64,000 bases of DNA from an uncultured Clostridia bacterium (GTDB lineage: Bacteria > Bacillota > Clostridia > TANB77 > CAG-508), in NCBI GenBank assembly GCA_934168305.1, contig CAKPNF010000001.1:69923-133922 (forward strand). Direction: 5' to 3'. The notes below the pieces were generated by a model that worked only from the letters and a program-made list of their open reading frames with translations, searched no databases and was not told the origin of the DNA. The position numbers and the translations under genes were made by a program. Position 1 is the first letter of the stretch. The number at the start of each line of letters is the position of its first letter. Shown here one piece after another: positions 3,850-64,000 of the stretch.

Positions 3850-5217
3850 ATGGGAAAAACACCAGTAGAAAAAAACAAAGAATATATAGTAGAAATAATT
3901 GATAATGGATTTGAAGGAGAAGGAATTGCAAAAATAGACAATTTTACAATTTTTATTAATGGTGCAATAAAAGGAGAAAAAGTAAAAATACTAATTGTAA
4001 AAGTTTTATCATCACATGCATTTGGAAAAATAGTAGAAATACTAGAAAAATCATATGCCAGACAAGAAGTAGACTGCACAACATATAAAAGATGTGGTGG
4101 ATGCAACATGAGACATATAAAATATGAAGATACACTAAAAATGAAACAAAATGCAGTTCAATCATTAGTAAATAAAACACTAAAAAACAAAATTCAAGTC
4201 AAGCCTACACTAGGCATGGAAAATCCATTACATTACAGAAATAAAGCACAATATCCAATAGGTATAAATAAGAATGGAGAGCCAGTAATTGGCGTATTTG
4301 CGAATAGAACACATGAAGTAATAACTATGGAAAAATGCTTAATTCAAAATCCAATATCAGAAGAAATAGCAAAAACAGTATTAGAATTTATAAAGAAAAA
4401 TAAAATTTCAATATATAACGAAAAAACAGTAAAAGGACTATTTAGACACATTGTAATAAAAGTTGGAATAAAAACAAATGAAGTAATGTGTATATTAGTT
4501 ATAAACGGTAACAAAATTCCAAAAGAAGATGAATTAGTAGAAATTCTAACACAAAAATATCCTAATATAAAAACAATAGTAAAAAATATAAATACCAAAA
4601 ACACAAATGTTATATTAGGAAAAGAAAATATCAATATATATGGAAATGGATATATTGAAGATAAATTAGGAGAATATACGTTTAAAATATCACCACTTTC
4701 ATTTTACCAAGTAAACCCTGTACAGGCTGAAAGACTTTACAATATTGGCGTAGAGGCAGCAAAAATAACAAAAAATGATACAGTGTTTGACTTATATTGT
4801 GGTATTGGAACAATTTCATTATTTATGGCAAAACATGCTAAAAAAGTGTATGGAGTTGAAATTGTAGAACAGGCAATTAAAGATGCAAAAGAAAATGCAA
4901 AAATTAATAATGTTGATAATGCTGAATTTATTGCAGGTGATACGGAAATTGTTTTGGATGACCTAATAAATAACAAAAATATTATTCCGGATGTTGTTAT
5001 GATTGACCCTCCAAGAAAAGGGCTTGATAATAAATCTATTGATAATATTTTAAAGATTAAACCTGATAGATTTGTGTATATTAGTTGTAATCCTGCTACT
5101 TTGGTTAGAGATTTGGCTAAATTTGAAGAGGTTTATGATGTTAAAGAGATTCAACCAGTAGATATGTTCCCTTTTACAGGACATGTTGAATGTGTATGTG
5201 TTCTAAATCTTAAATAA
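3850..5217 (+). CDS. rlmD: 23S rRNA (uracil-C5)-methyltransferase RlmD/RumA (TRAM + 4Fe-4S + SAM MTase)
   Basis: 455 aa. TRAM domain N-terminus. Cys cluster CTTYKRCGGCNMRH. C-terminal DPPRKG methyltransferase motif and nucleophile Cys. Confidence 0.85.
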   Translation: MGKTPVEKNKEYIVEIIDNGFEGEGIAKIDNFTIFINGAIKGEKVKILIVKVLSSHAFGKIVEILEKSYARQEVDCTTYKRCGGCNMRHIKYEDTLKMKQNAVQSLVNKTLKNKIQVKPTLGMENPLHYRNKAQYPIGINKNGEPVIGVFANRTHEVITMEKCLIQNPISEEIAKTVLEFIKKNKISIYNEKTVKGLFRHIVIKVGIKTNEVMCILVINGNKIPKEDELVEILTQKYPNIKTIVKNINTKNTNVILGKENINIYGNGYIEDKLGEYTFKISPLSFYQVNPVQAERLYNIGVEAAKITKNDTVFDLYCGIGTISLFMAKHAKKVYGVEIVEQAIKDAKENAKINNVDNAEFIAGDTEIVLDDLINNKNIIPDVVMIDPPRKGLDNKSIDNILKIKPDRFVYISCNPATLVRDLAKFEEVYDVKEIQPVDMFPFTGHVECVCVLNLK

Positions 5218-7328: not shown

Positions 7329-7369
7329 AATTTTTAAGTCAAAAAAATAAAAAAATTATATAAATACTT

Positions 7370-7415
7370 GTCGGAAAGTCTCGTAAATGATATAATATTT
7401 ACGAGACTTTCCGAC
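7370..7415 (+). promoter_or_regulatory. 19-bp perfect inverted repeat (GTCGGAAAGTCTCGTAAAT / ATTTACGAGACTTTCCGAC) enclosing a sigma-A-like promoter: -35 TTGTCG (7368-7373), 17-nt spacer, -10 TATAAT (7391-7396). Probable AbiEi autoregulatory operator.
   Basis: Read directly from the sequence. Lies 15 nt upstream of the abiEi RBS. AbiEi antitoxins are known to autorepress through promoter inverted repeats. Confidence 0.6.
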
Positions 7416-7429
7416 AAAGGAGAAAAAAG

Positions 7430-8023
7430 ATGGATAATATAGAAAGAATTGAAAAATTATTAAAAAAGAATAATGGAATTATAACAACAAGTGAGGTTGA
7501 AAAAATAGGAATTAATAGCAGAGTTTTAACAAGGATGATAGAAAAAGGAATAATAGAAAGAGTTGCAAGAGGAATTTATATAAGTACTGATACATTAGAA
7601 GATAAATATTTTATTACACAAGCTATTTGTAAAAAAGGAATATTCTCGCATGAAACCGCTTTATATTTTCATGACTTGTGTGATAGAACACCAATAAAAT
7701 ATCAATTAACCATACCAAGTTATTATAATCATACACTTATAAAAAATAAAAATTATGAATTCTTTTATTTAAAAGAAGAATTGTATGAAGTTGGTATAAC
7801 AGAAATGATAACACCGTATGGAAACAAAATAAGAGTATATGATTTAGAAAGAACAATTTGTGATATTATTAGAAACAAAAAAAGAATAGAAATAGCATTA
7901 TTTACAGATGCAATGAAAAGATATGCAGAAAGAAAAGATAGAAACTCAATTAGATTACACAAATATGCGAAATTATTTAATATTGAAGATGAGATAAGAA
8001 AATATTTGGAGGTGTTGCTATGA
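7430..8023 (+). CDS. abiEi: type IV toxin-antitoxin system AbiEi family antitoxin (wHTH)
   Basis: 197 aa. N-terminus IEKLLKKNNGIITTSEVEKIGINSRVLTRMIEKGIIERVARGIY matches the AbiEi_4 domain. 4-nt overlap (ATGA) with the downstream toxin gene. Confidence 0.8.
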   Translation: MDNIERIEKLLKKNNGIITTSEVEKIGINSRVLTRMIEKGIIERVARGIYISTDTLEDKYFITQAICKKGIFSHETALYFHDLCDRTPIKYQLTIPSYYNHTLIKNKNYEFFYLKEELYEVGITEMITPYGNKIRVYDLERTICDIIRNKKRIEIALFTDAMKRYAERKDRNSIRLHKYAKLFNIEDEIRKYLEVLL

Positions 8024-8868
8024 TTGCTAAAAATAGAGCACAATTAAAAGCATGGATAAAAAAAGTGTCATCAAAAGTTGACGTAAATGAAAATATTATT
8101 TTACAAAACTACATGCTAGAAAGATTATTGGAAAGAATTTCAGTATCAGATTACAAATATAAATTTGTATTAAAAGGTGGAATGTTAATAACCGCTATAG
8201 TTGGAATAGATATGAGAAATACATTGGATATGGATACGACAATAAAAGGATTTGATTTAGAAAAAGACAACCTAGAAAATATATTAAATGAAATATTCAA
8301 TATAGATTTAGATGATGGAGTTACTTTTGAATTTACAAATATAAAGGAAATAAGACAAGAAGACGAATATGGAGGATATAGAGTTTCATTAAATGCTAAA
8401 TTTGACAAATTAGTTGTACCAATGAAATTAGATATAACAACAGGAGATGTTATTGTACCTAAAGAAGTAAATTATAAATTTGGTTTGATGTTTGAAAATC
8501 GTTCTATAGAAATACTTGCATATAATATGGAAACTGTAATAGCAGATAAATTTGAAACAATTATATCAAGAAATGTTGATACAACTAGAGCAAGGGATTT
8601 TTACGATATATATATACTTTGGACTACACAGTCACAAAATTTTAATAAGGAATTATTAGGACAAGCGATTGTAGAAAAATTTAAATATAGAGAATCTACA
8701 GACAAATTAAACAATATAGATGAGATAATGGGAGTTATAAAAGAAAGTGATGCTTTAAAAGAACACTGGAAGAATTACCAGTCTAAATTTAGTTATGCAG
8801 AAGATATTAGCTATGAAGATACAATAGAAGTGTTAGAAAAAATAATAAATTTATTAAGACAGAAATAA
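8020..8868 (+). CDS. abiEii: nucleotidyltransferase AbiEii/AbiGii toxin family protein (DUF1814)
   Basis: 282 aa. LKGGMLITAIVGIDMRNTLDMDTTIKGF, the GG..R.T.DxD nucleotidyltransferase signature. Translationally coupled to abiEi. Confidence 0.8.
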   Translation: MIAKNRAQLKAWIKKVSSKVDVNENIILQNYMLERLLERISVSDYKYKFVLKGGMLITAIVGIDMRNTLDMDTTIKGFDLEKDNLENILNEIFNIDLDDGVTFEFTNIKEIRQEDEYGGYRVSLNAKFDKLVVPMKLDITTGDVIVPKEVNYKFGLMFENRSIEILAYNMETVIADKFETIISRNVDTTRARDFYDIYILWTTQSQNFNKELLGQAIVEKFKYRESTDKLNNIDEIMGVIKESDALKEHWKNYQSKFSYAEDISYEDTIEVLEKIINLLRQK

Positions 8869-8913
8869 ATTTTTGTAATTAATAAAAAAATTCATGAAAA
8901 AGAATGAAGGGTT

Positions 8914-9414
8914 ATGGAAAATAATTATATTGAATTAGATTGGGATTTAGTTGAAAAAATATATGTTGATAAAGCAAAAATACTAAAGAGAATTGCATAT
9001 AAAAGAGTTCATAATATAGAAGTTGCAGAGGATATTGTGCAAAATACAATGGAATCAATCTGCAAAATAGTAAATAAAAATAATAGAATATACAATTTGG
9101 ATGCATGGATAAATACAATATTAAAATATAGATGGATAGATGTTTATAGAAAAAACAATTCTATACAGTATTTTTCTAATGATGTTATAGAAAATTGTTT
9201 GATAGAGGAAGAGATAGATACAATTGAAAATATAAATTTATATCATGCATTAAAAGATTTGGAAGAATTGGATATGAAATTTATTATATATAAATTTATT
9301 TATGGCTTTAACAATACAGAAATTTCTAGAATTTTTGGATGTTGTAGTCAAACAGTAACAAGGAAAATAAATAAAGCATTGGAAATAATGAGAAACAAAT
9401 TAAGAATAGAGTAA
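8914..9414 (+). CDS. sigma-70 family (ECF-like) RNA polymerase sigma factor, no adjacent anti-sigma
   Basis: 166 aa. Region 2 VAEDIVQNTMESI and RWIDVYRKN. Region 4.2 HTH NTEISRIFGCCSQTVTRKINKALEIMRNKL. Confidence 0.75.
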   Translation: MENNYIELDWDLVEKIYVDKAKILKRIAYKRVHNIEVAEDIVQNTMESICKIVNKNNRIYNLDAWINTILKYRWIDVYRKNNSIQYFSNDVIENCLIEEEIDTIENINLYHALKDLEELDMKFIIYKFIYGFNNTEISRIFGCCSQTVTRKINKALEIMRNKLRIE

Positions 9415-9439
9415 AAGAAACAAAAAATAGGAGGAGAAT

Positions 9440-12400
9440 ATGTCATTTGAAGCAGGGGGAAGAACAGACAAAGCAGGAAATAGATTTGAAATAAGATATT
9501 TTATATTACAATTATTAAAAGTAATAGAAGAAGAAATAAGAAGTGCAACATTAGAGGCTTTGGGTGATGATGAAAAAGGTACAGATATTTGGATTGAAAA
9601 TAAAAATGGAACAAGAGAAAGTCAACAATGCAAAGGAAGATATGGAAACAATGATAATTGGAATTTTTCTGCCATGGATCAATACGAAATTTTTAAAAAT
9701 TGGAAATATCAATTAGATAGAGATAATAACTTTTTCGTTAGTTTAGTATCTCCAATTTCATTTATAGTTTTTGAAGACCTAATAAAAAGAGCTAAAAATA
9801 CAAGTGATAATCCAAGAGACTTTTATGAAAACCAGATAAAAAAGTCTGATGATAAAATGACAAATTGTTATAGTAATTATTGCAAAAGAATGAAATTAAA
9901 TCCAGAAGATGAAAGAGATTTGATTCAGAGTATTGATTATTTAAATAGAACGAATTATCATCAAATACCAGATGAAGAACTAAAAAATATTATTTTGAAT
10001 AAAATAAAATATTTATTTATAGGTGATACTGAAATAATATATAATTGTTTTGTTGAACTGGTGCTAGATGAAAATATCTTAGCACAAAAAATAGATGTTA
10101 TATATCTAGATAATTTTATAAAATCCAAAAATATAATGTTTAGAAATTTATCGAAAGATGATAGAATTCTTCCAAGAATAACAGAATTAAACAATGAATA
10201 TAATCAGTTTTTTTCTCCAATTAATGGTAATTTGATAGAAAGAGAAGAATTTACAAAATGCAAGGAATTAATTGAAGAAGGTAAATCTATAATTATTCAT
10301 GGAAAAGCAGGATATGGAAAAAGTGGTATTACACAATTAATTATTCAGTATTGCGAACAAAAAACAATACCTCATATTGCAATAAAATTAGATAAAAGAG
10401 TTCCAAGAGACAATGTAGAAGAATGGAGTAAAAAACTAGGATTGCCAACATCAATAGGATTTTGCATAGATAGTATTTCTAAAGATAAAAATGCAGTGAT
10501 AATTTTAGATCAGTTAGATGCGTTAAGGTGGACACAGTCACATTCTAGAGATGCGTTATTAGTATGTACAGAGTTAATAGAACAAATAAAAAAACTTAAT
10601 TTTGAAAGACAAAATAAAATTTCGATTATTTTTGTGTGTAGAACCTATGATTTGGAAAATGATAATAGCATTAAATTGTTGTTTAAAGATGAGAGAAAAG
10701 AAAAAATTTGGAAAAAAATAAATGTAGAAAAATTCTCGAAAGAGATGCTAAAATCATTAATAGGAACGGAATATGCTGGGTTCTCAAAAAAATTACAAGA
10801 ATTACTTAGAATTCCAAGCAACTTGTACATATGGAGCAAATTAGATAAAAATCAAAGATATGATGATTGTAATACTACTAATATGTTAATACAAAAATGG
10901 TGGAGTCAATTATTGCAAAAAGCAAATGAATTAGAAATTAGTGAAAAAGAATTACAAGAATGTAAGAATAATATAGTAACAGTATTAGATAAGGCAGGAA
11001 GAATAAGCATATTAAGAAAATTTTTAGATGTTAATGCTAGTGCTTTAGATTATTTATATTCAAATGGTTTCTTAATTATAGAGAATAATATTGTATCATT
11101 TACGCATCAAAGTTTATTAGACTATTTCTTAGAGGAAAATATGTTATATAAATATCAAAATGGAAACAATATTGAAGATATAATTGGAGACAAATCAAAA
11201 CAAATACCTGCAAGAAGATATCAAATTCAAATGCTTTTGGAAGACTTAGCTAATAGTGATACACAAGATTTTATTTGTGTTGGAAGAGAATTATTGGAAT
11301 CTAATAATATAAGATTCTATATAAAATATGTGTTTTTTGAAGTCTTGGGACAAATTACAGATATTGATTATGACATAGAACAATTTATTTTAGAATATTA
11401 TGACAATCAAATGTATGGTGTTCATGTCCTAAATAATGTCATATATTCGCATCCTCAATATGTCAGAATATTAATTAAAAATGGAATTTTTGACATTTGG
11501 ATGAAAGATGATAAAAAGAAAGATATATGTATTAATTTATTAGGAAGTATTAAAGAAAAATATTGTGTGGAAGATGTAAAATTCATAGAAAAGTATTTAT
11601 TCAATTGTGAAGAAGATGATAAAAAAATATACAGGTGTTTTAATTATGATATAAATGACGACATAGATGAAATGTTTGAATTAAGAATGAAACTATATAA
11701 TAAATATCCGGAATTAAGTGATGAATACATTAATTTAAAGAAAATGTTACAAGACAATGAATTAAGAGCAATAAGATTAATAAAATTTTGGCTTGATAAT
11801 AAAGTAAAGAACAAAAACAAGAGAATATATAAATATGAAGAAGAATTGATTACAGAAGAATCAGATATTATTGTTAATAACGATGAAAAAATAATTGAAA
11901 TATTATTGCCATGCATACCAAAAGAAACTAAAACGCATTTTGGAGATTGGACAGGTAGACATAGATTTTCTATTGGAATAGAAAGAGCTTGTGTTGAATT
12001 AATAAAAAAAGCAAATGCTAATTTAATAAAACGAAATCCAGATAGATTTTTAGAAATATATGAAATATATATGGGAAAAGGTTATCCAATATTTAATGAA
12101 TTTATACTGAATGGATTAGAAAGGTTACCGGTAAAATATAGTGACTATGTTATTGGATATTTATGTGCTGATTTTAAAAAGAATATTTTTGATGAAAGTA
12201 GTGGAAATGGTGATGAGTTGTTATTAACCAAAAATATCCTGAAAAAACATTCAGTTAAATGCAGTAAAGAAGTTTTTGAAAACTTAGAAGAAAAAATATA
12301 TTTTTATCAAGAAGATAAAATAGTCGAAATATATAAGAGGATTCGAGAATATAAATTAAATTATACATCTAAAAGAATGTATTGGGATTGCTGGGGAAAT

Positions 12401-13984
12401 GTACAAGTTGAACTTTTGCCATATTTACCATATCAAAGATTAAATTATAAAACACGACAATTAATGAAAGTGCTTAATCGCAAATTTAAAAAAGGTAGCA
12501 ATTATTACAAGTACGATAATGGGCATAGTGGTTCAGTATGGTCTCCAATAAGTAATAAAAATTTAAGTAATAAACAATGGATAAGACTATTTTCAAATAA
12601 AAAATTAGAAAATTTAAAGAGACATACTTGGAAAGAAGTAACCGGTGGCTTTATAGAAAGTAGTATGAGAGAGTTTACCAATAGTTTTAATCAAGCAGTT
12701 TCTAATGAACCAATAAGGGTGATTAATTTAGTTTTATCTAATTCAAATATCATATTGAATGAATTTGTAGATGCACTATATAGTGGATTACAATCAAGCG
12801 AAAACATAGATAAAGTTCCAATAGATCTATTAGAAAAAGTGTTTAAAGTATTTCCGTGTGATAATGAATCGCAGAGAGCTAATTGTATCTGTTGGATAAT
12901 TTATAAAAGAAAGAATATAAATTGGTCTCAGAATACATTAAATTTATTAAAGAATATAGCAATAAATCATAAAGATCCAATAATGGGGAAGCCTAATATA
13001 AAAAATGATAAAGATAAAGAAATTAAAAGCATAGATATGTTACAAAGTAATTCACTTAATTGTACAAGAGGTGAGGCAGCACAAGCAATAGGACATCTTT
13101 TATGGGAAAACATAGAATTATTTGAAGAATTTAAAGAAACAATCCAATTATTAAGTGAAGATATTAATCCTGTAGTGAGATTTGCAAGTTTACACTGCTT
13201 ATTGCCTGCATATAATATTCAAAGGGATTGGGCGAGAGAAAAAATTTTAAATTTATTTGAAACAGATATTAGACTAGTATCTTTTTGGCGTGCAAAAGAT
13301 ATATTATTCTTTTCGTATGATAAAGAAAAGGATAGAGTACTAAAAATAATAGAAAATTGCTATTATTCTGAGGATAAAAAATTAAAGGAAATAGGAAGTT
13401 ACTGTGTAGTAGAAATGTATATATTAAAAAATGAATTTTCATATATAATGAATGAGATTGATTCGATGGATGAAAATCAAATTAAGGCCATTTTGCATAT
13501 GGCAATAAATTATTTTAATAATGTTAAATATAATCAAAAAGTAAAAAATATTATTTCTAGATTTAAAGAAAAAAATTATGATATAGAACAATCTATTTGT
13601 AGATTATTTTATGATAATTTAATAGATTTGAATAGGGACAAAGAATTTCTAAAAGATATTATGAATAGTACTGCAGGAAGACGTTCTATACATTCTTTTA
13701 TTCATTATATTGATGAAAATGCAGTATCTATATTAGATTTTAAAGAAATTATTATAGAATCAATAAACTCTATTTTAGAAAATAGTGAATTAGAAAAAGA
13801 GAACATTTACTATTATGGTGATGAATTATCAAAATTAATTGTAGGTTTATATGATGAAACTGTAGGTAAAAAACAAAGAGAGATGAAAAATCTTTCAGAA
13901 AAATGTTTAGATATCTGGGATGAAATGTTTGAAAAACAAATCGGATCAATTAAGAAATTAAGCAGGGATATTTTGGATAGATAG
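9440..13984 (+). CDS. 1514-aa Avs/NLR-like candidate defense protein: N-terminal DUF4297/Cap4-like PD-(D/E)xK nuclease signature + STAND-like P-loop NTPase + ~1100-aa helical repeat region
   Basis: N-terminus FEAGGRTDKAGNRFEIRYFILQLLKV ... EALGDDEKGTDIWIENK ... ESQQCKG fits the DUF4297 consensus (GG..G.fe..y..lL.LL / E.DD / QxK). Walker A IIIHGKAGYGKSG at nt 10301-10327. Walker B VIILDQLDAL about 65 aa later, then sensor-1-like IIFVCRT. The remaining ~1100 aa is repeat-like and helical (by composition). RBS GGAGG 8 nt upstream. Confidence 0.6.
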   Translation: MSFEAGGRTDKAGNRFEIRYFILQLLKVIEEEIRSATLEALGDDEKGTDIWIENKNGTRESQQCKGRYGNNDNWNFSAMDQYEIFKNWKYQLDRDNNFFVSLVSPISFIVFEDLIKRAKNTSDNPRDFYENQIKKSDDKMTNCYSNYCKRMKLNPEDERDLIQSIDYLNRTNYHQIPDEELKNIILNKIKYLFIGDTEIIYNCFVELVLDENILAQKIDVIYLDNFIKSKNIMFRNLSKDDRILPRITELNNEYNQFFSPINGNLIEREEFTKCKELIEEGKSIIIHGKAGYGKSGITQLIIQYCEQKTIPHIAIKLDKRVPRDNVEEWSKKLGLPTSIGFCIDSISKDKNAVIILDQLDALRWTQSHSRDALLVCTELIEQIKKLNFERQNKISIIFVCRTYDLENDNSIKLLFKDERKEKIWKKINVEKFSKEMLKSLIGTEYAGFSKKLQELLRIPSNLYIWSKLDKNQRYDDCNTTNMLIQKWWSQLLQKANELEISEKELQECKNNIVTVLDKAGRISILRKFLDVNASALDYLYSNGFLIIENNIVSFTHQSLLDYFLEENMLYKYQNGNNIEDIIGDKSKQIPARRYQIQMLLEDLANSDTQDFICVGRELLESNNIRFYIKYVFFEVLGQITDIDYDIEQFILEYYDNQMYGVHVLNNVIYSHPQYVRILIKNGIFDIWMKDDKKKDICINLLGSIKEKYCVEDVKFIEKYLFNCEEDDKKIYRCFNYDINDDIDEMFELRMKLYNKYPELSDEYINLKKMLQDNELRAIRLIKFWLDNKVKNKNKRIYKYEEELITEESDIIVNNDEKIIEILLPCIPKETKTHFGDWTGRHRFSIGIERACVELIKKANANLIKRNPDRFLEIYEIYMGKGYPIFNEFILNGLERLPVKYSDYVIGYLCADFKKNIFDESSGNGDELLLTKNILKKHSVKCSKEVFENLEEKIYFYQEDKIVEIYKRIREYKLNYTSKRMYWDCWGNVQVELLPYLPYQRLNYKTRQLMKVLNRKFKKGSNYYKYDNGHSGSVWSPISNKNLSNKQWIRLFSNKKLENLKRHTWKEVTGGFIESSMREFTNSFNQAVSNEPIRVINLVLSNSNIILNEFVDALYSGLQSSENIDKVPIDLLEKVFKVFPCDNESQRANCICWIIYKRKNINWSQNTLNLLKNIAINHKDPIMGKPNIKNDKDKEIKSIDMLQSNSLNCTRGEAAQAIGHLLWENIELFEEFKETIQLLSEDINPVVRFASLHCLLPAYNIQRDWAREKILNLFETDIRLVSFWRAKDILFFSYDKEKDRVLKIIENCYYSEDKKLKEIGSYCVVEMYILKNEFSYIMNEIDSMDENQIKAILHMAINYFNNVKYNQKVKNIISRFKEKNYDIEQSICRLFYDNLIDLNRDKEFLKDIMNSTAGRRSIHSFIHYIDENAVSILDFKEIIIESINSILENSELEKENIYYYGDELSKLIVGLYDETVGKKQREMKNLSEKCLDIWDEMFEKQIGSIKKLSRDILDR

Positions 13985-14036
13985 TATAGATAATTGAGAT
14001 GGAGGATATATCTTAAAAAAAGAAGGGGGAATATAT

Positions 14037-15116
14037 ATGTTAAAAGACTTATGTTTTGAAATAATACAAACATGCCCTAATAAATGCAAATTTTGTTCTT
14101 CCAATTCCTCAAAAGACAAAAAAACAATAATAACATTAGAAGATTTTAAGAAAACAGTTATGTATTTTATTACTCATGGTGGAATTGGAGAAATATCAAT
14201 TTCAGGAGGAGAACCTTTTTTACATCCAGATTTATTCGAAATGATAAAGTTTTGTAAAGACAATGGAATTAGAACAGTTATATTCACTAGTGGAATAAAA
14301 AGAGCACCTGCAATACCAGAAAAAACGATAGAATATATAAAAAATAAATGTAAAAAAGATTTAGAAGAAATAGAAGAACATGAACCATGGAATGAAAGAC
14401 TAAAAAGAAATGTGAAGGCATATTATAAAAGAATGATTAGTCCAGGAGAATTTACTTCACTAACAAGGCAAGAACTAGAAAAAATAAAAGAATTAGGAGT
14501 AGATAAAATCGTATTTGATTGGCAAGCATTAGATGAAAATATTGATAATGAGTTAATGGGAAGAAAAGCATTAAATACATATCTAATGGATTCTTTGATT
14601 AGAGCAAGCATTGTTGGGTTAAATGTAGATGTTCATTTTATTCCTATGAAGCCAAATTATAAGCAATTTCCAGATATAATAGAATGTTTACAAATAGCAA
14701 AAGTAAAAAATATTAGTATTTTAAATTTTGTACCACAAGGTAGAGGATTAGAAAACAAAAGAGAACTAATGTTAAACGAAACAGAGTTAAGAGAATTTGG
14801 AGAAATATTAAAAAAAGAAAAAGAGCATTATAGCGGTAACATAAGAATTGGAATTCCTTTAAATGGAAAAATATCTCATTTATGCACAGCTGGAACTGAA
14901 AAATTGGATATAAAATATGACGGAACAATACTACCATGTCCAGCATTCAAGGAAATGAGCGTAGAGAAAATGGAAAAGTACGGTATAAAATTACATAGTA
15001 TATATGAGGATTTGGAAAAAGTAGTTATACATGAAGGAAAAAGAAAATCGCCATTATGTAAGCAAGTATATGGATTTAAAGGAAAGTTGACAGAAAGTGA
15101 AGAGATAGAGTTTTAA
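14037..15116 (+). CDS. radical SAM protein, with a possible auxiliary Cys cluster
   Basis: 359 aa. CPNKCKFC (Cx3Cx2C) at nt 14073-14095. GGEPFL glycine-rich SAM motif. Three further Cys in the C-terminal 80 aa (HLC, LPCP, PLCK). 52 nt downstream of the giant ORF, same strand. Confidence 0.8.
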   Translation: MLKDLCFEIIQTCPNKCKFCSSNSSKDKKTIITLEDFKKTVMYFITHGGIGEISISGGEPFLHPDLFEMIKFCKDNGIRTVIFTSGIKRAPAIPEKTIEYIKNKCKKDLEEIEEHEPWNERLKRNVKAYYKRMISPGEFTSLTRQELEKIKELGVDKIVFDWQALDENIDNELMGRKALNTYLMDSLIRASIVGLNVDVHFIPMKPNYKQFPDIIECLQIAKVKNISILNFVPQGRGLENKRELMLNETELREFGEILKKEKEHYSGNIRIGIPLNGKISHLCTAGTEKLDIKYDGTILPCPAFKEMSVEKMEKYGIKLHSIYEDLEKVVIHEGKRKSPLCKQVYGFKGKLTESEEIEF

Positions 15117-15128
15117 GGAGGAATAGTT

Positions 15129-15299
15129 ATGAAAATATTAATTGGAACAAAAAATCCAGGAAAAATAGAAGGAGCAAAACAAGCATTTGAAAAATATTTT
15201 AACAATGTAGAAATAGAAGGAATACCAGTAAAATCAAATGTAGGAGACCAACCAGTAAACGAAGAAATACAAATTCTTTGGGAGAATGGATTGATATAA
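15129..15299 (+). pseudogene. rdgB: truncated N-terminal fragment (57 aa) of a non-canonical purine NTP pyrophosphatase (RdgB/Ham1 family)
   Basis: MKILIGTKNPGKIEGAKQAFEKYF..VEIEG matches the Ham1 N-terminus (MKxxxATxNxGKxxExxxxL). The ORF stops after 57 codons, and the remaining ~140 aa of the family is absent. Has an RBS (AGGAGG). Confidence 0.5.
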
Positions 15300-15962: not shown

Positions 15963-17498
15963 ATGATAAAGAATAATATAAGAGATTACCAACAAGAAAT
16001 AATTAATGTTATTATAAAAAAATTACAACAAAATTCAAAAGAAATATTTATAGAAATGCCATCAGGAACAGGAAAAAGTATAGTCATTGAAGAAGTAATT
16101 AAGTTATTAGAAGCTAAAAGCAATATTTTAATAATCAATAAAAACAAAATAGCAGAACAACAATTTAAGGAACAATTTAAAAATTATAAAAACGTGACAA
16201 TAGAAAATTACTATAATTATCAGTCAATAATAGATAAATTTGATTATATTATATTTAGCGATATGGAAGAATTGTCTGAAGAAAAATATAAAAATATATA
16301 TCAAATATTTAAAAAAGCAAGAATAATAGGATTTTGTAATAAAAGTCAAAGAATAAGTAAGCGAGGGGAATGGTTAGATAAAAAAACTATAGATTATTCC
16401 ATAACTATTCAACAGATAATTAATGACGGCTATATGAATCCAAATCAATTAGAAAATCAATTTCAATATTTTATCGAAGAACTCTTAAAGAAATTAAGAT
16501 TTATTAATTTAGAAAAAGAAAGAGCTTTAAAAACTAAAAAAGGAATAATGAGAGTAGATTTTATTATTCATAATAATGAAAAAGAAATAATTGTAGAAAC
16601 TAAGGACTACAGGAGTAAATTTGTAGAAGGTACTATCATTAATCGAGCAATAGAACAATTAGATTATTATAAGAGTATATTGCAAGAAGAAAATAAAAAT
16701 GATATAGAAGCCATATTAATTGTGAATTGCTATGTTTCAGAAAAAATAAAGGAAAGTACTTATAATGAAAAGAAAATTTTGATTTTAGATATTTCTAATT
16801 TAATATATTTATCACAAAAAAATGAAGAATTGATGAAAAATCTAATAGAAAGTACACAATATAATATTTATGATATAGTTCCAAAAGAACCTATAAAGAT
16901 GGAATTGCTAAAATTACAAAAGAAAGAAAATATAAGCAAGAGTGTTGAAAATGAAATAGATAGTGCAAAAAAATTTATACAAAGATTAGAAAATATGAAA
17001 TATGGTAACAAAGAAAAGAATGACAAAGAATATGAAAAATTATGTGTACAAATTATTAGATATTTATTTGAAACAGAGTTTACAAGAATATTAGAACAAA
17101 GTAGTACAGAAGATAAAATGTTCAGAATGGATTTAGTTTGTGGATTAAAAGGAACTTCAGAATTTTGGAAAATACTTATTCAACATTACAATACAAGATT
17201 TGTTGTTTTTGAATTTAAAAATTATAAAGAAGAAATTGATCAAAATCTTATTTATATAACTGAAAAATACCTATATAATGCAGTTTTAAGAAACGTAGCA
17301 ATTATTGTATCAAGGAAAGGTTTTTCATATAATGCTCATAAGGCTGCAATAGGAGTATTAACCGAAAATGGAAAATTAATTATAGAAATAAAAGATGATG
17401 ATTTAATTACAATGTTAAGAATGAAAGCTGATGGACAAGATGCATCAGATTATTTATTAAATATATTAGAAGAATATTTAATATCTATTAGTAAATAA
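15963..17498 (+). CDS. hypothetical protein with degenerate SF2-helicase-like N-terminus and two PD-(D/E)xK nuclease-like motifs (candidate defense protein)
   Basis: 511 aa. RDYQQEII + EMPSGTGKS (Q-motif/Walker A) and DYIIFSDMEE (weak motif II). MRVDFIIHNNEKEIIVETKDY (D..ExK). RMDLVCG...FVVFEFKNY (second D..ExK). Confidence 0.45.
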   Translation: MIKNNIRDYQQEIINVIIKKLQQNSKEIFIEMPSGTGKSIVIEEVIKLLEAKSNILIINKNKIAEQQFKEQFKNYKNVTIENYYNYQSIIDKFDYIIFSDMEELSEEKYKNIYQIFKKARIIGFCNKSQRISKRGEWLDKKTIDYSITIQQIINDGYMNPNQLENQFQYFIEELLKKLRFINLEKERALKTKKGIMRVDFIIHNNEKEIIVETKDYRSKFVEGTIINRAIEQLDYYKSILQEENKNDIEAILIVNCYVSEKIKESTYNEKKILILDISNLIYLSQKNEELMKNLIESTQYNIYDIVPKEPIKMELLKLQKKENISKSVENEIDSAKKFIQRLENMKYGNKEKNDKEYEKLCVQIIRYLFETEFTRILEQSSTEDKMFRMDLVCGLKGTSEFWKILIQHYNTRFVVFEFKNYKEEIDQNLIYITEKYLYNAVLRNVAIIVSRKGFSYNAHKAAIGVLTENGKLIIEIKDDDLITMLRMKADGQDASDYLLNILEEYLISISK

Positions 17499-31140: not shown

Positions 31141-31215
31141 TGGGGTGTAGCCAAGCGGTAAGGCAGATGGCTCTGACCCATCGATGCGTAGGTTCGAATC
31201 CTACCACCCCAGCCA
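31141..31215 (+). tRNA. tRNA-Gln (anticodon CUG)
   Basis: Manual cloverleaf. Acceptor TGGGGTG/CACCCCA. Anticodon stem GATGG/CCATC with loop CTCTGAC. T-arm GTAGG-TTCGAAT-CCTAC. Discriminator G + CCA. Confidence 0.9.
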
Positions 31216-59803: not shown

Positions 59804-60362
59804 ATGAAAAACAAAAAAATAAAAGAATATATTATTAATGGAAACATTGATATGGAAAAAATAATTAATGATTTTGCACGGATATATATTTATAATAATA
59901 AAAAATAGTGGATATTTATTCAGCAATGAAGACATAGAAGAAATAGCATCAGATGTATTTCTTGTAATATGGAAAAACAAAGAAAAACTAGACATTAACA
60001 AAGAAATTGCTCCATATATAGCAGGAATAACAAAAAAATTGATATTAAAAAGAAAAAATAATTTTAAAAATAATAATGAAAACATTGAAGAATATGAAAA
60101 CTTTTTATATGAAAAAAATAATGATATACATATTAAAATAGAAGAAAACGAAAAAATAAATATATTAACTAACGAACTAACAAAAATGAAAGAAGAAGAT
60201 AAAAATATTTTTACATATTATTATTACCAATCAAAATCAATAAAAGATATATCAAGTTTATTAAAAATATCACAAATTAAAGTTAAATCAAGACTATCAA
60301 GAATACGAAAAAGATTAAAAAATGAATTAGAAAAAAGGGGGTATGGTTATGAAAGAAGATAA
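59804..60362 (+). CDS. ECF sigma factor, apparent +1 frameshift at ~59885-59905 between region 1/2.1 and the rest
   Basis: The 59804-59907 ORF gives KEYIINGNIDMEKIINDFARIYIY, a typical ECF N-terminus, then a stop. The 59868-60362 ORF continues with region 2.2 NEDIEEIASDVFLVIWKN and region 4 KSIKDISSLLKISQIKVKSRLSRIRKRL. Confidence 0.7.
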
Positions 60363-62745: not shown

Positions 62746-64000
62746 ATGGAGAAAGATTTAGATAAAAAATTGTACAATGATTATTTGAATGGAGAAAAAG
62801 AAGCATTTGAAATTCTTTATAACAAATACAAAAATAAAATTGAATATTTCATTTATAACATAGTAAAAGACTATCAAAAAGCAGAGGACATAGCTCAAGA
62901 AACTTTTATATACGTTATACAGCACCAAATGAGAAAAAATAGTTCGTTTAAATACTATATATATCTTGTTGCAAGAAGCAAAGCACTAAATTATATAAAT
63001 GTAGAAAAAAGAAGAAATGAAATAACTGAAAAATATCTTGCAAATGATAATGAACAAATTGAAAAAGATGTATTAGATATTATTACAACAGAGGAAAGTA
63101 AAAAAGAACTATTAGAATCAATAGAATTGTTAGACGAAAGATATAAAAATGCAATTTATCTCGTAAATATTGAAGGACTATCTTATGAAGAAACATCTAA
63201 AATATTAGGAGAAACTCTACAAAACACAAAGAATTTAATACATAGAGGAAAAAAACAATTAAGAAAAATCCTGCTAAAGAAAGGATTTAATGAAATGAAT
63301 AAAGTTTTGAAAATTTTTGTAATAATTATATGCGCAACAATCGCATTATCGGGAATAGTCTATGCTACAACAGTTATATATAATAAGTATATAAAAAACA
63401 ATACAAATCATAATATTACAATGAACCCATCATATCAAAGTACACTAGATGAGAATACAATAAATAATTTATGGGTGGGAACACTAGATTTAGCATGGAA
63501 AGACCTAGAAGAAAAAATTGGATTAAATAAGATAGAATTAGAAGGCGAAATGCCACAAATTGCAAATGATTTAAATGAAAGTACATTTTCAAAAGAAATG
63601 CTAAATCCAAATGATTATAAAATAGATGTAGAAAGAACAGTTACAAATGGATACAAAATAGATGCTACACTTAACAAAGAATTGAACTTTTTAGAATCAT
63701 TTGATAATTTTAATGATTATAAATGGACATTTGGAAATAGTGAAGAATATATTAAATATTTTGGAATAAATAATGCAAGTCCAGAAAAAATGAATAAAAA
63801 TGTGGAAATTTTATTTTACAATAAATTAAACAATGGCAGTCTATTAAGTAATGATATGGCAATAAAATTAAAAACTAAAGAAGGGGACGAAATAATACTT
63901 TATAGAACAGATGATAAAAAATCATTTGATAAATATTATGAAGATGTAAAAACAAAATCTAAAAACTATACAGGACGTACAGAGTTTGCGAAAGATGATG
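62746..64000 (+). CDS. ECF sigma factor fused in-frame to a TM anti-sigma-like domain (3' partial at window end)
   Basis: Region 2 AEDIAQETFIYVIQH. Region 4 LSYEETSKILGETLQNTKNLIHRGKKQLRKIL. The frame continues without a stop into TM helix IIICATIALSGIVYATT and an extracytoplasmic region. Not in the ORF track because no stop is reached. Confidence 0.6.
   Translation, partial: MEKDLDKKLYNDYLNGEKEAFEILYNKYKNKIEYFIYNIVKDYQKAEDIAQETFIYVIQHQMRKNSSFKYYIYLVARSKALNYINVEKRRNEITEKYLANDNEQIEKDVLDIITTEESKKELLESIELLDERYKNAIYLVNIEGLSYEETSKILGETLQNTKNLIHRGKKQLRKILLKKGFNEMNKVLKIFVIIICATIALSGIVYATTVIYNKYIKNNTNHNITMNPSYQSTLDENTINNLWVGTLDLAWKDLEEKIGLNKIELEGEMPQIANDLNESTFSKEMLNPNDYKIDVERTVTNGYKIDATLNKELNFLESFDNFNDYKWTFGNSEEYIKYFGINNASPEKMNKNVEILFYNKLNNGSLLSNDMAIKLKTKEGDEIILYRTDDKKSFDKYYEDVKTKSKNYTGRTEFAKDD

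Follow-up and report, generated by a model that had tools for sequence, protein, structure and literature searches.

The stretch of DNA analysed here (the window; 64,000 nt from an uncultured Clostridia bacterium, assembly GCA_934168305.1, contig CAKPNF010000001.1, positions 69,923 to 133,922) contains four co-directional genes in the order abiEi, abiEii, sigma and giant, i.e., an AbiE toxin-antitoxin (TA) pair, a gene for an extracytoplasmic function (ECF)-type sigma factor at 8914-9414, and a very long STAND-like open reading frame (ORF) at 9440-13984, called the giant below. The sigma gene is the subject of this work. A preliminary description of the locus had placed the sigma gene between the AbiE toxin gene and the giant in an operon-like array, with a 25-nt gap to the giant and without an anti-sigma partner, and had suggested that the sigma factor may regulate the module, or be sequestered or activated by the giant as a sigma-sensor pair. 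The arrangement is as described. The sigma gene ends at 9414 and the giant starts at 9440, the 25-nt spacer between them (9415-9439, + strand) carries a strong AGGAGG ribosome-binding site for the giant, and a search for an anti-sigma-like ORF between abiEii and the giant on both strands found no candidate.

The sigma gene (8914-9414, + strand; 166 aa, ATG start) encodes a genuine, intact sigma factor of the ECF type (group 4), with predicted promoter-directing activity. Its product matches NCBIfam TIGR02937 (sigma70-ECF) with 58 bits against a cutoff of 42.9 over residues 14-163, and Pfam Sigma70_r2 with 33 bits against a cutoff of 24 over residues 23-82. Region 2 (8980-9159, + strand; residues 23-82 by the Pfam coordinates and the family alignment) contains VAEDIVQNT and NLDAWINTILKYRWIDVYRK, and its AEDIVQ and NLDAW..R motifs are kept across the family alignment. 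The preliminary description had seen clear signatures of both region 2 and region 4.2; this holds for region 2, but for region 4.2 Pfam Sigma70_r4_2 taken alone reaches 18.1 bits over residues 109-157, below its cutoff of 25.7. The region 4.2 helix-turn-helix (9238-9384, + strand; residues 109-157, GFNNTEISRIFGCCSQTVTRKINKAL) is nevertheless covered by the TIGR02937 span and is present in the PDB profile alignments and in the structure model. When the family profile was compared with solved structures, the ECF sigmas matched were 5uxx, SigH, SigL and SigW. The AlphaFold2 model (mean pLDDT 81) has two helical bundles and a low-confidence linker (residues 82-89), and all 27 of its Foldseek matches at E<=1e-3 are ECF sigmas; regions 1.1 and 3 are absent from this short two-domain protein, as judged from its length and the model. 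The ORF is a real gene because its homologues show ratios of non-synonymous to synonymous divergence (dN/dS) of 0.11-0.33, i.e., purifying selection throughout the comparisons, also where neither member of a pair has the giant.

By profile and subfamily searches the sigma factor fits no defined ECF subfamily and belongs to a previously unclassified, very narrow family. The best NCBIfam subfamily or equivalog model is SigV, at 56 bits against a cutoff of 190, and all others are far below their cutoffs. With the ECF group 4 sigmas (SigW and SigV of B. subtilis, SigH and SigL of M. tuberculosis) it shares the sigma2-sigma4 architecture of ~170 aa, the AEDIVQ and NLxAW...R motifs, the region 4.2 helix-turn-helix, a passed TIGR02937 cutoff and the best structural matches. 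It differs from them in lacking a co-encoded anti-sigma factor, which is typical of that group (not strictly defining), and in the sharp isolation of its family, whose next relatives stand at ~31% identity. Anti-sigma genes are likewise not adjacent to the crown-clade sigma homologues in the loci examined. A single-sequence search returned 21 close matches and a profile search ~30 members, after which the hits jump to generic ECF sigmas at 31% identity. In an index-free HMMER search of 1.84 billion cluster representatives, five family members were found at E<=1e-30, the weakest with 147 bits; the next full-length match has 74 bits, and between the two scores lie a 138-aa fragment (P0019) and two shorter fragments. 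On this evidence the family is very small, isolated, and confined to a narrow group of low-GC gut Clostridia.

A phage or plasmid origin of the sigma factor was rejected: viral contigs encode no relative of it, a tblastn search of a 72,556-plasmid collection gave no match at E<=1e-3, phages match at 26% identity only, and the match to phrog_1740 in PHROG (71 bits) is a generic one to phage ECF-like sigmas. An apparent homology between the sigma factor and AbiEi (BLAST E=1e-3 in a 15-sequence database) was also rejected as compositional, the hhalign probability being 0.2%. In the family alignment (alignment A2), C50 is invariant; C74 and C144 are each present in at least 90% of members, C74 being W in the window sigma and C144 lying in the helix-turn-helix turn of region 4.2 (GCC). 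To assign these cysteines a redox or metal role would be pure speculation.

The AbiE pair upstream is canonical. The gene for the antitoxin and autorepressor, abiEi (7430-8023, + strand; 197 aa), was identified by Pfam AbiEi_4 (45 bits) and PADLOC AbiEi (E=1.2e-71), and the gene for the nucleotidyltransferase toxin, abiEii (8020-8868, + strand; 282 aa), by Pfam AbiEii (130 bits) and PADLOC AbiEii (E=5.4e-97); the start of abiEii overlaps the stop of abiEi by 4 nt. A promoter scan found a sigma-A-type promoter (TTGTCG-17-TATAAT with an upstream TG) at 7368-7396 on the + strand, the only good promoter of this type ahead of the array, and an inverted-repeat scan found a perfect palindrome with 20-bp arms (7369-7416, + strand) that spans its -35 and -10 elements and is presumed to be the AbiEi operator. 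Promoter and palindrome are kept in seven loci, with the sigma gene present or absent (alignment A5). The middles of the palindrome arms vary symmetrically among the loci (GTC/GAC, TCT/AGA, TTTTCAT/ATGAAAA and CTC/GAG), which fits a putative operator for dimeric AbiEi, and operator and repressor specificity seem to co-vary. The palindrome matches the AbiEi autoregulation via inverted repeats that has been reported (PMC7319586). The locus thus resembles the AbiE type IV TA and abortive infection systems in its overlapping gene pair and in the palindrome over the promoter, and is unlike them in that known operons have two genes, whereas here a sigma gene and then an Avs-type or DUF6414 gene apparently follow in the same operon. 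A literature search found no paper that links AbiE with a sigma factor or that describes an AbiE operon with a sigma and an Avs-type gene added.

The four genes are most likely read as one array from the promoter at 7368-7396, as suggested by the spacing and signals around them. The 45-nt spacer between abiEii and sigma (8869-8913, + strand) carries a weak ribosome-binding site (GAAGGG, 2 nt before the ATG). The sigma-giant spacer measures 25-32 nt in all sigma-giant loci, and at 25 nt in the window it therefore has no room for a promoter. A terminator scan found no terminator-like site on the + strand from 7430 to 15116, and Rfam gave no RNA family at the locus, the sole match in the window being a tRNA at 31141-31212. 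The sigma gene stands closely behind a co-directional gene in every context in which it was found. No conserved promoter-sized segment precedes it across these contexts; a conserved autoregulatory promoter at this position was considered and dropped, the shared sequence of only ~25-35 nt being too short.

The giant (9440-13984, + strand; 1514 aa) was recognized by a sub-threshold nSTAND3 match, by PADLOC PDC-M54A, by its motifs and by a profile match to SeAvs7. Pfam nSTAND3 scores 18 bits, below the cutoff of 27. Its P-loop NTPase region (~residues 266-563, nt 10235-11128, + strand) matches PDC-M54A with E=8.9e-16, and Walker A (GKAGxGKSG, in the window GKAGYGKSG) and Walker B (ILDQLD) are invariant in the giant family. 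The N-terminus is nuclease-like (~residues 1-145, nt 9440-9874, + strand), with the invariant pattern D49..E60-x-Q-Q-C-K65, whose acidic, Q and K residues could form a nuclease site; Pfam gives no match on the N-terminus of the window giant, and two homologues have sub-cutoff matches to Cap4_nuclease (L058, 22.7 bits, E=1.3e-4; L020, E=0.06). The C-terminus (residues 560-1514, nt 11117-13981, + strand), a putative sensor, is modelled as a 955-residue all-alpha, HEAT/ARM-like solenoid with a pLDDT of 84 and karyopherins and CAND1 as best Foldseek matches. The family is length-conserved at 1511-1520 aa, with >943 matches in Clostridia, Bacilli, Negativicutes and others.

Compared with solved proteins, the giant-family profile has one match, PDB 9N00 (apo SeAvs7, 1523 aa), collinear in the NTPase region (E=5.6e-6) and weak in the C-terminal region; 9N00 is not among the best 50 Foldseek matches of the sensor model. 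SeAvs7 consists of a Cap4 nuclease, a STAND NTPase and a bilobed TPR sensor of the phage major capsid protein, and acts as a single-gene defence (bioRxiv 10.64898/2026.01.04.697583). The giant resembles Avs7 (PDB 9N00/9N01/9YIX) in length, in collinearity, in a putative, weakly Cap4-like N-terminus and in its all-alpha solenoid; it is unlike Avs7 in that the similarity is weak and that, in the sigma-linked clade, the gene sits in an AbiE operon. The giant is treated here as an Avs-type STAND protein and a distant Avs7 relative, the likeness being too weak for strict Avs7 membership. Giants linked to a sigma gene have the same length and architecture as the other giants and no extra domain.

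To see which genes accompany which, loci were surveyed from both sides. On the giant side, 80 giant loci with 6-kb flanks were taken, one genome per species, and scanned for the sigma factor with the family hidden Markov model (HMM) on all six-frame ORFs at E<=10; six loci had too little upstream sequence and were excluded. No sigma gene was present within 6 kb in 72 of the 74 informative species-level loci. It was found only in L013 and in L046, where the contig end cuts it, and the same scan gave one insignificant match, 5 kb off on the opposite strand. The genes upstream of giant loci are heterogeneous. A conserved downstream partner of the giant was rejected, the neighbours varying (acyltransferase_3, RhuM, Fic, YhcG nuclease). 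In L153 (4486-10545) a giant of 70% identity directly follows AbiEi-AbiEii on a mobilisable element with a relaxase, and in L156 a giant of 63% identity follows a PIN_12 gene.

On the sigma side, the order AbiEi-AbiEii-sigma-giant was found in the window, L006-L010, L013, L092 and L148, and in L011 the last 33 nt of abiEii are followed by sigma and giant. Other genes take the place of the giant elsewhere. L160 (230-2587) has the order AbiEii-sigma-DUF6414, with an AbiEii 86% and a sigma 58% identical to those of the window, and L147 (150-1639) has sigma-DUF6414. The DUF6414 protein of these two loci (305 aa) matches Pfam DUF6414, and the conserved 76-nt spacer before it carries an extended -10-like TGTATAAT. 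DUF6414 is a domain of Dodola DolA (bioRxiv 10.1101/2024.10.26.620412). Identity of the 305-aa protein with DolA is not established, as no PADLOC model matches it. In L150-152 an abiEii 3' remnant and the sigma gene are followed by a zinc-ribbon membrane protein (in L150 at 2253-2960, 213 nt downstream of sigma). The sigma gene lies between a HAD-like gene and a 73-aa ORF in L001-5, and between a Ham1-like gene and a 283-aa single-pass membrane protein (1936-2787, 24 nt downstream) in L146; the latter has a lysine-rich 45-aa cytoplasmic head. In L159 a beta-lactamase-like gene precedes the sigma gene and a 334-aa protein follows it, and in L158 a divergent gene and a NUDIX gene come after sigma. 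The 283-aa, 334-aa and 73-aa products have no Pfam or PADLOC match even at E<=1, and a defence identity for them was dropped, no defence model matching any of them; an Rx4H HEPN-like motif spotted by eye in the 334-aa protein is unsupported.

These surveys bear on the co-occurrence test proposed in the preliminary description, which would have seen the pairing fail if the sigma gene were found beside unrelated genes and never beside giant homologues. The sigma gene does stand next to giant homologues, but only in a single narrow clade, and it also stands beside unrelated genes (DUF6414, a HAD-like gene with a 73-aa ORF, membrane proteins and the 334-aa protein). The sigma-linked giants form one clade with 87-99% mutual identity and synonymous divergence (dS) <=0.45, and the adjacency is therefore shared by descent from one event. 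As judged from these sequences, the gene order arose once and was vertically inherited. In a neighbour-joining tree of the sigma factors, the crown clade of giant-linked sigmas includes the giant-less L001 and L150 and has the DUF6414-linked sigmas as its sister, and the AbiE-less lineages are basal. Between the window and L160, dS is 1.02 for AbiEii and 1.02 for sigma; between the window and L153 it is 1.00 for AbiEii and 1.10 for the giant. Since neighbouring genes have matching dS, the AbiE-sigma and AbiE-giant linkages are about equally old and recombination need not be invoked, and AbiE-sigma-giant may well be the ancestral order. In L153 the spacer between AbiEii and the giant (82 nt) resembles, at the expected position, the final 40 nt of the window sigma gene, with a score reached by 8 of 1000 shuffles (81 and 288 of 1000 when compared with two other sigmas), and a remnant of a sigma 3' end at this place is suggestive only.

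The order has since come apart repeatedly. L012 (5132-10542) has no sigma gene, and the ribosome-binding site of its giant lies ~18-26 nt after abiEii; this giant is intact and 96% identical to the sigma-linked giant of L013. In L161 (8590-14013) and L162, abiEi is missing together with the 5' half of abiEii, and the sigma gene is a pseudogene, its first ~78 codons gone, the rest fused in frame to the abiEii fragment and with a frameshift near the end. The giant there is intact (94% identity), and a complete abiE promoter and operator stand directly upstream of the remnants; the L161 operon may be unrepressed. Remnants of the abiEii 3' end adjoin the sigma gene in L011 and L150. Altogether, an intact sigma gene without a giant was found in L001-5, L150-152, L146, L147, L158, L159 and L160, and a giant without sigma, or with a sigma pseudogene only (L161), in L012, L153, L156 and L161. 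On this comparison AbiE, sigma and giant are three separable units, each of which was lost singly while the others stayed intact. Where the giant directly follows abiEii (L012 and L153), the Avs-type gene appears to be driven from the TA promoter, and its expression would be tied to AbiEi repression. The sigma factor evolves faster than its neighbours, its non-synonymous rate being ~2x that of the giant and its dN/dS two to three times that of AbiEii.

We propose that the sigma factor is an accessory regulator in an AbiEi-controlled operon, one that can be separated from AbiE as well as from the Avs-type gene, and we regard this as probable, with considerable doubt remaining. It is considered accessory and not an obligate partner because AbiE, sigma and giant are separable and, in a sister lineage, a DUF6414 gene stands where the giant would be. 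A role as obligate partner or sensor-coupled component of the giant is not supported, and evidence for the two working as a pair was not found in the loci compared. In the proposed mechanism, sigma and giant would be co-transcribed from the abiE promoter at 7368-7396. Since no anti-sigma factor is encoded beside the sigma gene, the sigma level would be set by transcription, with AbiEi repression of the operon promoter replacing anti-sigma control. Once made, the sigma factor would direct RNA polymerase to target promoters, which cannot lie in the 25-nt gap before the giant.

Several points weigh against this proposal. The spacing of 25-32 nt between sigma and giant has been kept through dS ~0.4-0.7 in several lineages, which fits functional coupling. 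In L160 and L147 the sigma gene again precedes a gene with a defence-associated domain, DUF6414, and given these loci a sigma factor that leads variable defence cargo is still conceivable. The sigma-side sample is also thin, with about a dozen independent contexts, many of them on short contigs.

In another reading the sigma factor is a dedicated feed-forward activator of its cargo in the manner of TcdR, UviA or BotR: made once infection lifts AbiEi repression, it would boost the giant, DUF6414 or other defence genes. We consider this unlikely, while granting that the sigma gene is always immediately upstream of and co-directional with the next gene (25-32 nt before the giant, 76 nt before DUF6414, 9-24 nt before others), that two different cargo genes with defence-associated domains stand behind the same AbiE pair, and that the protein is under purifying selection. 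The nearest functional analogy would be the TcdR-related group 5 sigmas (TcdR, BotR, TetR, UviA), which are likewise small clostridial sigmas encoded at toxin loci, directly upstream of the genes they activate, with no membrane anti-sigma (PMC4031146). Membership in that group was rejected. The region 4.2 SRQ motif of group 5 (PMC4031146) is absent, the window sigma having G-C-C-S-Q-T-V, and the position varies across the family (CSQ, CNQ, CHQ, CDR, SYK); the TcdR-type promoter TTTACA-N15-19-GTTATA has no match in the 64-kb window; no TcdR-type model is among the 25 listed of 64 NCBIfam matches; and, as indirect evidence, the plasmid collection, where uviA plasmids are expected (their presence there is unverified), gave no match at E<=1e-3. 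A SigW-type promoter (GAAAC-N15-18-CGT) was also sought in the window and rejected, its single match being at chance level and on the wrong strand inside abiEii. Against the activator reading stand the intact giants behind abiEii in L012, with sigma missing, and L161, with a sigma pseudogene, and the cargo therefore needs no sigma in cis. The gap before the giant has no room for a promoter to be activated, a conserved promoter-like block upstream of sigma was not found across contexts, and the remaining downstream products (283-aa, 334-aa and 73-aa) match no defence model.

The sigma gene might instead be a passenger, i.e., what remains of an earlier sigma/anti-sigma unit or mobile element that came to lie in a variable chromosomal region, and one which serves an unrelated regulon or is on its way to loss, so that its position has no functional meaning. 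The basal family members are found in non-defence contexts, and the L146 membrane protein at 24 nt fits an anti-sigma architecture; the single-pass membrane proteins behind the distant sigmas of L146 and L150 may point to an ancestral sigma/anti-sigma pair. Several loci have serine recombinases and a relaxase nearby, the sigma gene has been lost repeatedly (L012, L161, perhaps L153), and its dN/dS exceeds that of its neighbours. A dN/dS of 0.11-0.33 nevertheless indicates a protein that is still maintained, the AbiEii-sigma junction has been kept since dS ~1, and the spacing is tight and operon-like in every context, and we find a passenger somewhat harder to accept than an activator. More doubtful again is a TA-gated amplifier, in which relief from AbiEi in infection would lead to synthesis of the sigma factor, which would take RNA polymerase to defence promoters or off phage promoters and so serve whichever effector cassette follows, the Avs-type giant or DUF6414.

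The model of the preliminary description, in which the giant binds the sigma factor and sequesters or releases it (or, in a variant, guards it), is very improbable: the 25-nt adjacency is kept in several lineages of one clade and the role of an anti-sigma factor is left vacant, but 72 of 74 informative giant loci have no sigma gene within 6 kb, giants with a linked sigma do not differ from other giants in length or domains, either gene is kept where the other is missing, the related SeAvs7 acts via its own Cap4 nuclease with no partner gene, and the sigma factor changes at about twice the non-synonymous rate of the giant.

In all related genomes (L006, L150, L161) the same TRAM/tRNA-U5 methyltransferase gene (3850-5217 in the window) stands a few kb upstream of the module, and the genes between the two differ among genomes, as in a variable chromosomal hotspot. 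On the other side, a radical SAM gene (14037-15116, + strand; 359 aa, Pfam Radical_SAM 70 bits) is adjacent to and co-directional with the giant. It is probably not part of the module: a homologue stands beside the giant in none of the 80 loci, and the 90% clusters of the two differ ~20-fold in size, with 945 members for the radical SAM protein and 46 for the giant. It is followed by an N-terminal fragment of NTPase_I-T (DUF84) at 15129-15299 (+ strand; 56 aa, Pfam PF01931 42 bits, profile positions 1-43 of 162), possibly a rearrangement scar at the right edge of the variable region. A 511-aa protein encoded at 15963-17498 has a ResIII helicase N-terminus and matches the PADLOC candidate PDC-M36A (E=1.3e-12) and PHROG 31260 (E=1.6e-62); it is likely another defence gene, 2 kb downstream, and the region looks like a small defence island.

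Two further sigma genes lie in the window, neither a close paralogue of the one at 8914-9414. The preliminary description contrasted them with it as sigmas that have membrane anti-sigma partners, which is only roughly right. The ECF sigma gene at 59804-60362 does precede a membrane protein, a 387-aa PepSY-type one. The gene is split in two frames beside an A-run, with ~34 codons from ATG 59804 up to a stop and the rest from 59868, and its region 2 is matched at E=0.0016; the split is either a frameshift, a sequencing error or a sign of a shorter true start. The ORF at 62746-64000, which runs off the window end (at least 418 aa), is a single fused protein, with regions 2 and 4 at residues 24-174, then a transmembrane helix and at least 220 aa of outside domain. 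Because it is fused to the membrane segment, it is a membrane-tethered sigma and not one with a separate anti-sigma factor.

No defence-linked sigma factor was found in the literature search. Transcription factors that travel with defence genes include AbiEi and the BrxR/CapW-type WYL repressors, each of them, like the sigma factor here, a regulator encoded 5' of variable defence cargo. Those repressors bind operators; a sigma factor instead acts positively, by recruiting RNA polymerase. Should the sigma factor prove to control the defence cargo, an anti-phage operon would for the first time have a regulator based on a sigma factor, and a TA repressor would be linked to an Avs-type sensor; if the amplifier reading were true, defence islands would have a positive, sigma-based layer of control so far undescribed. 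As the evidence stands, the locus is a worked example of how genes tightly adjacent in a defence island may owe their order to one accident that was then inherited. It adds a very narrow, previously unclassified family of ECF sigmas, and it suggests that a toxin-antitoxin promoter can drive an Avs-type STAND gene.

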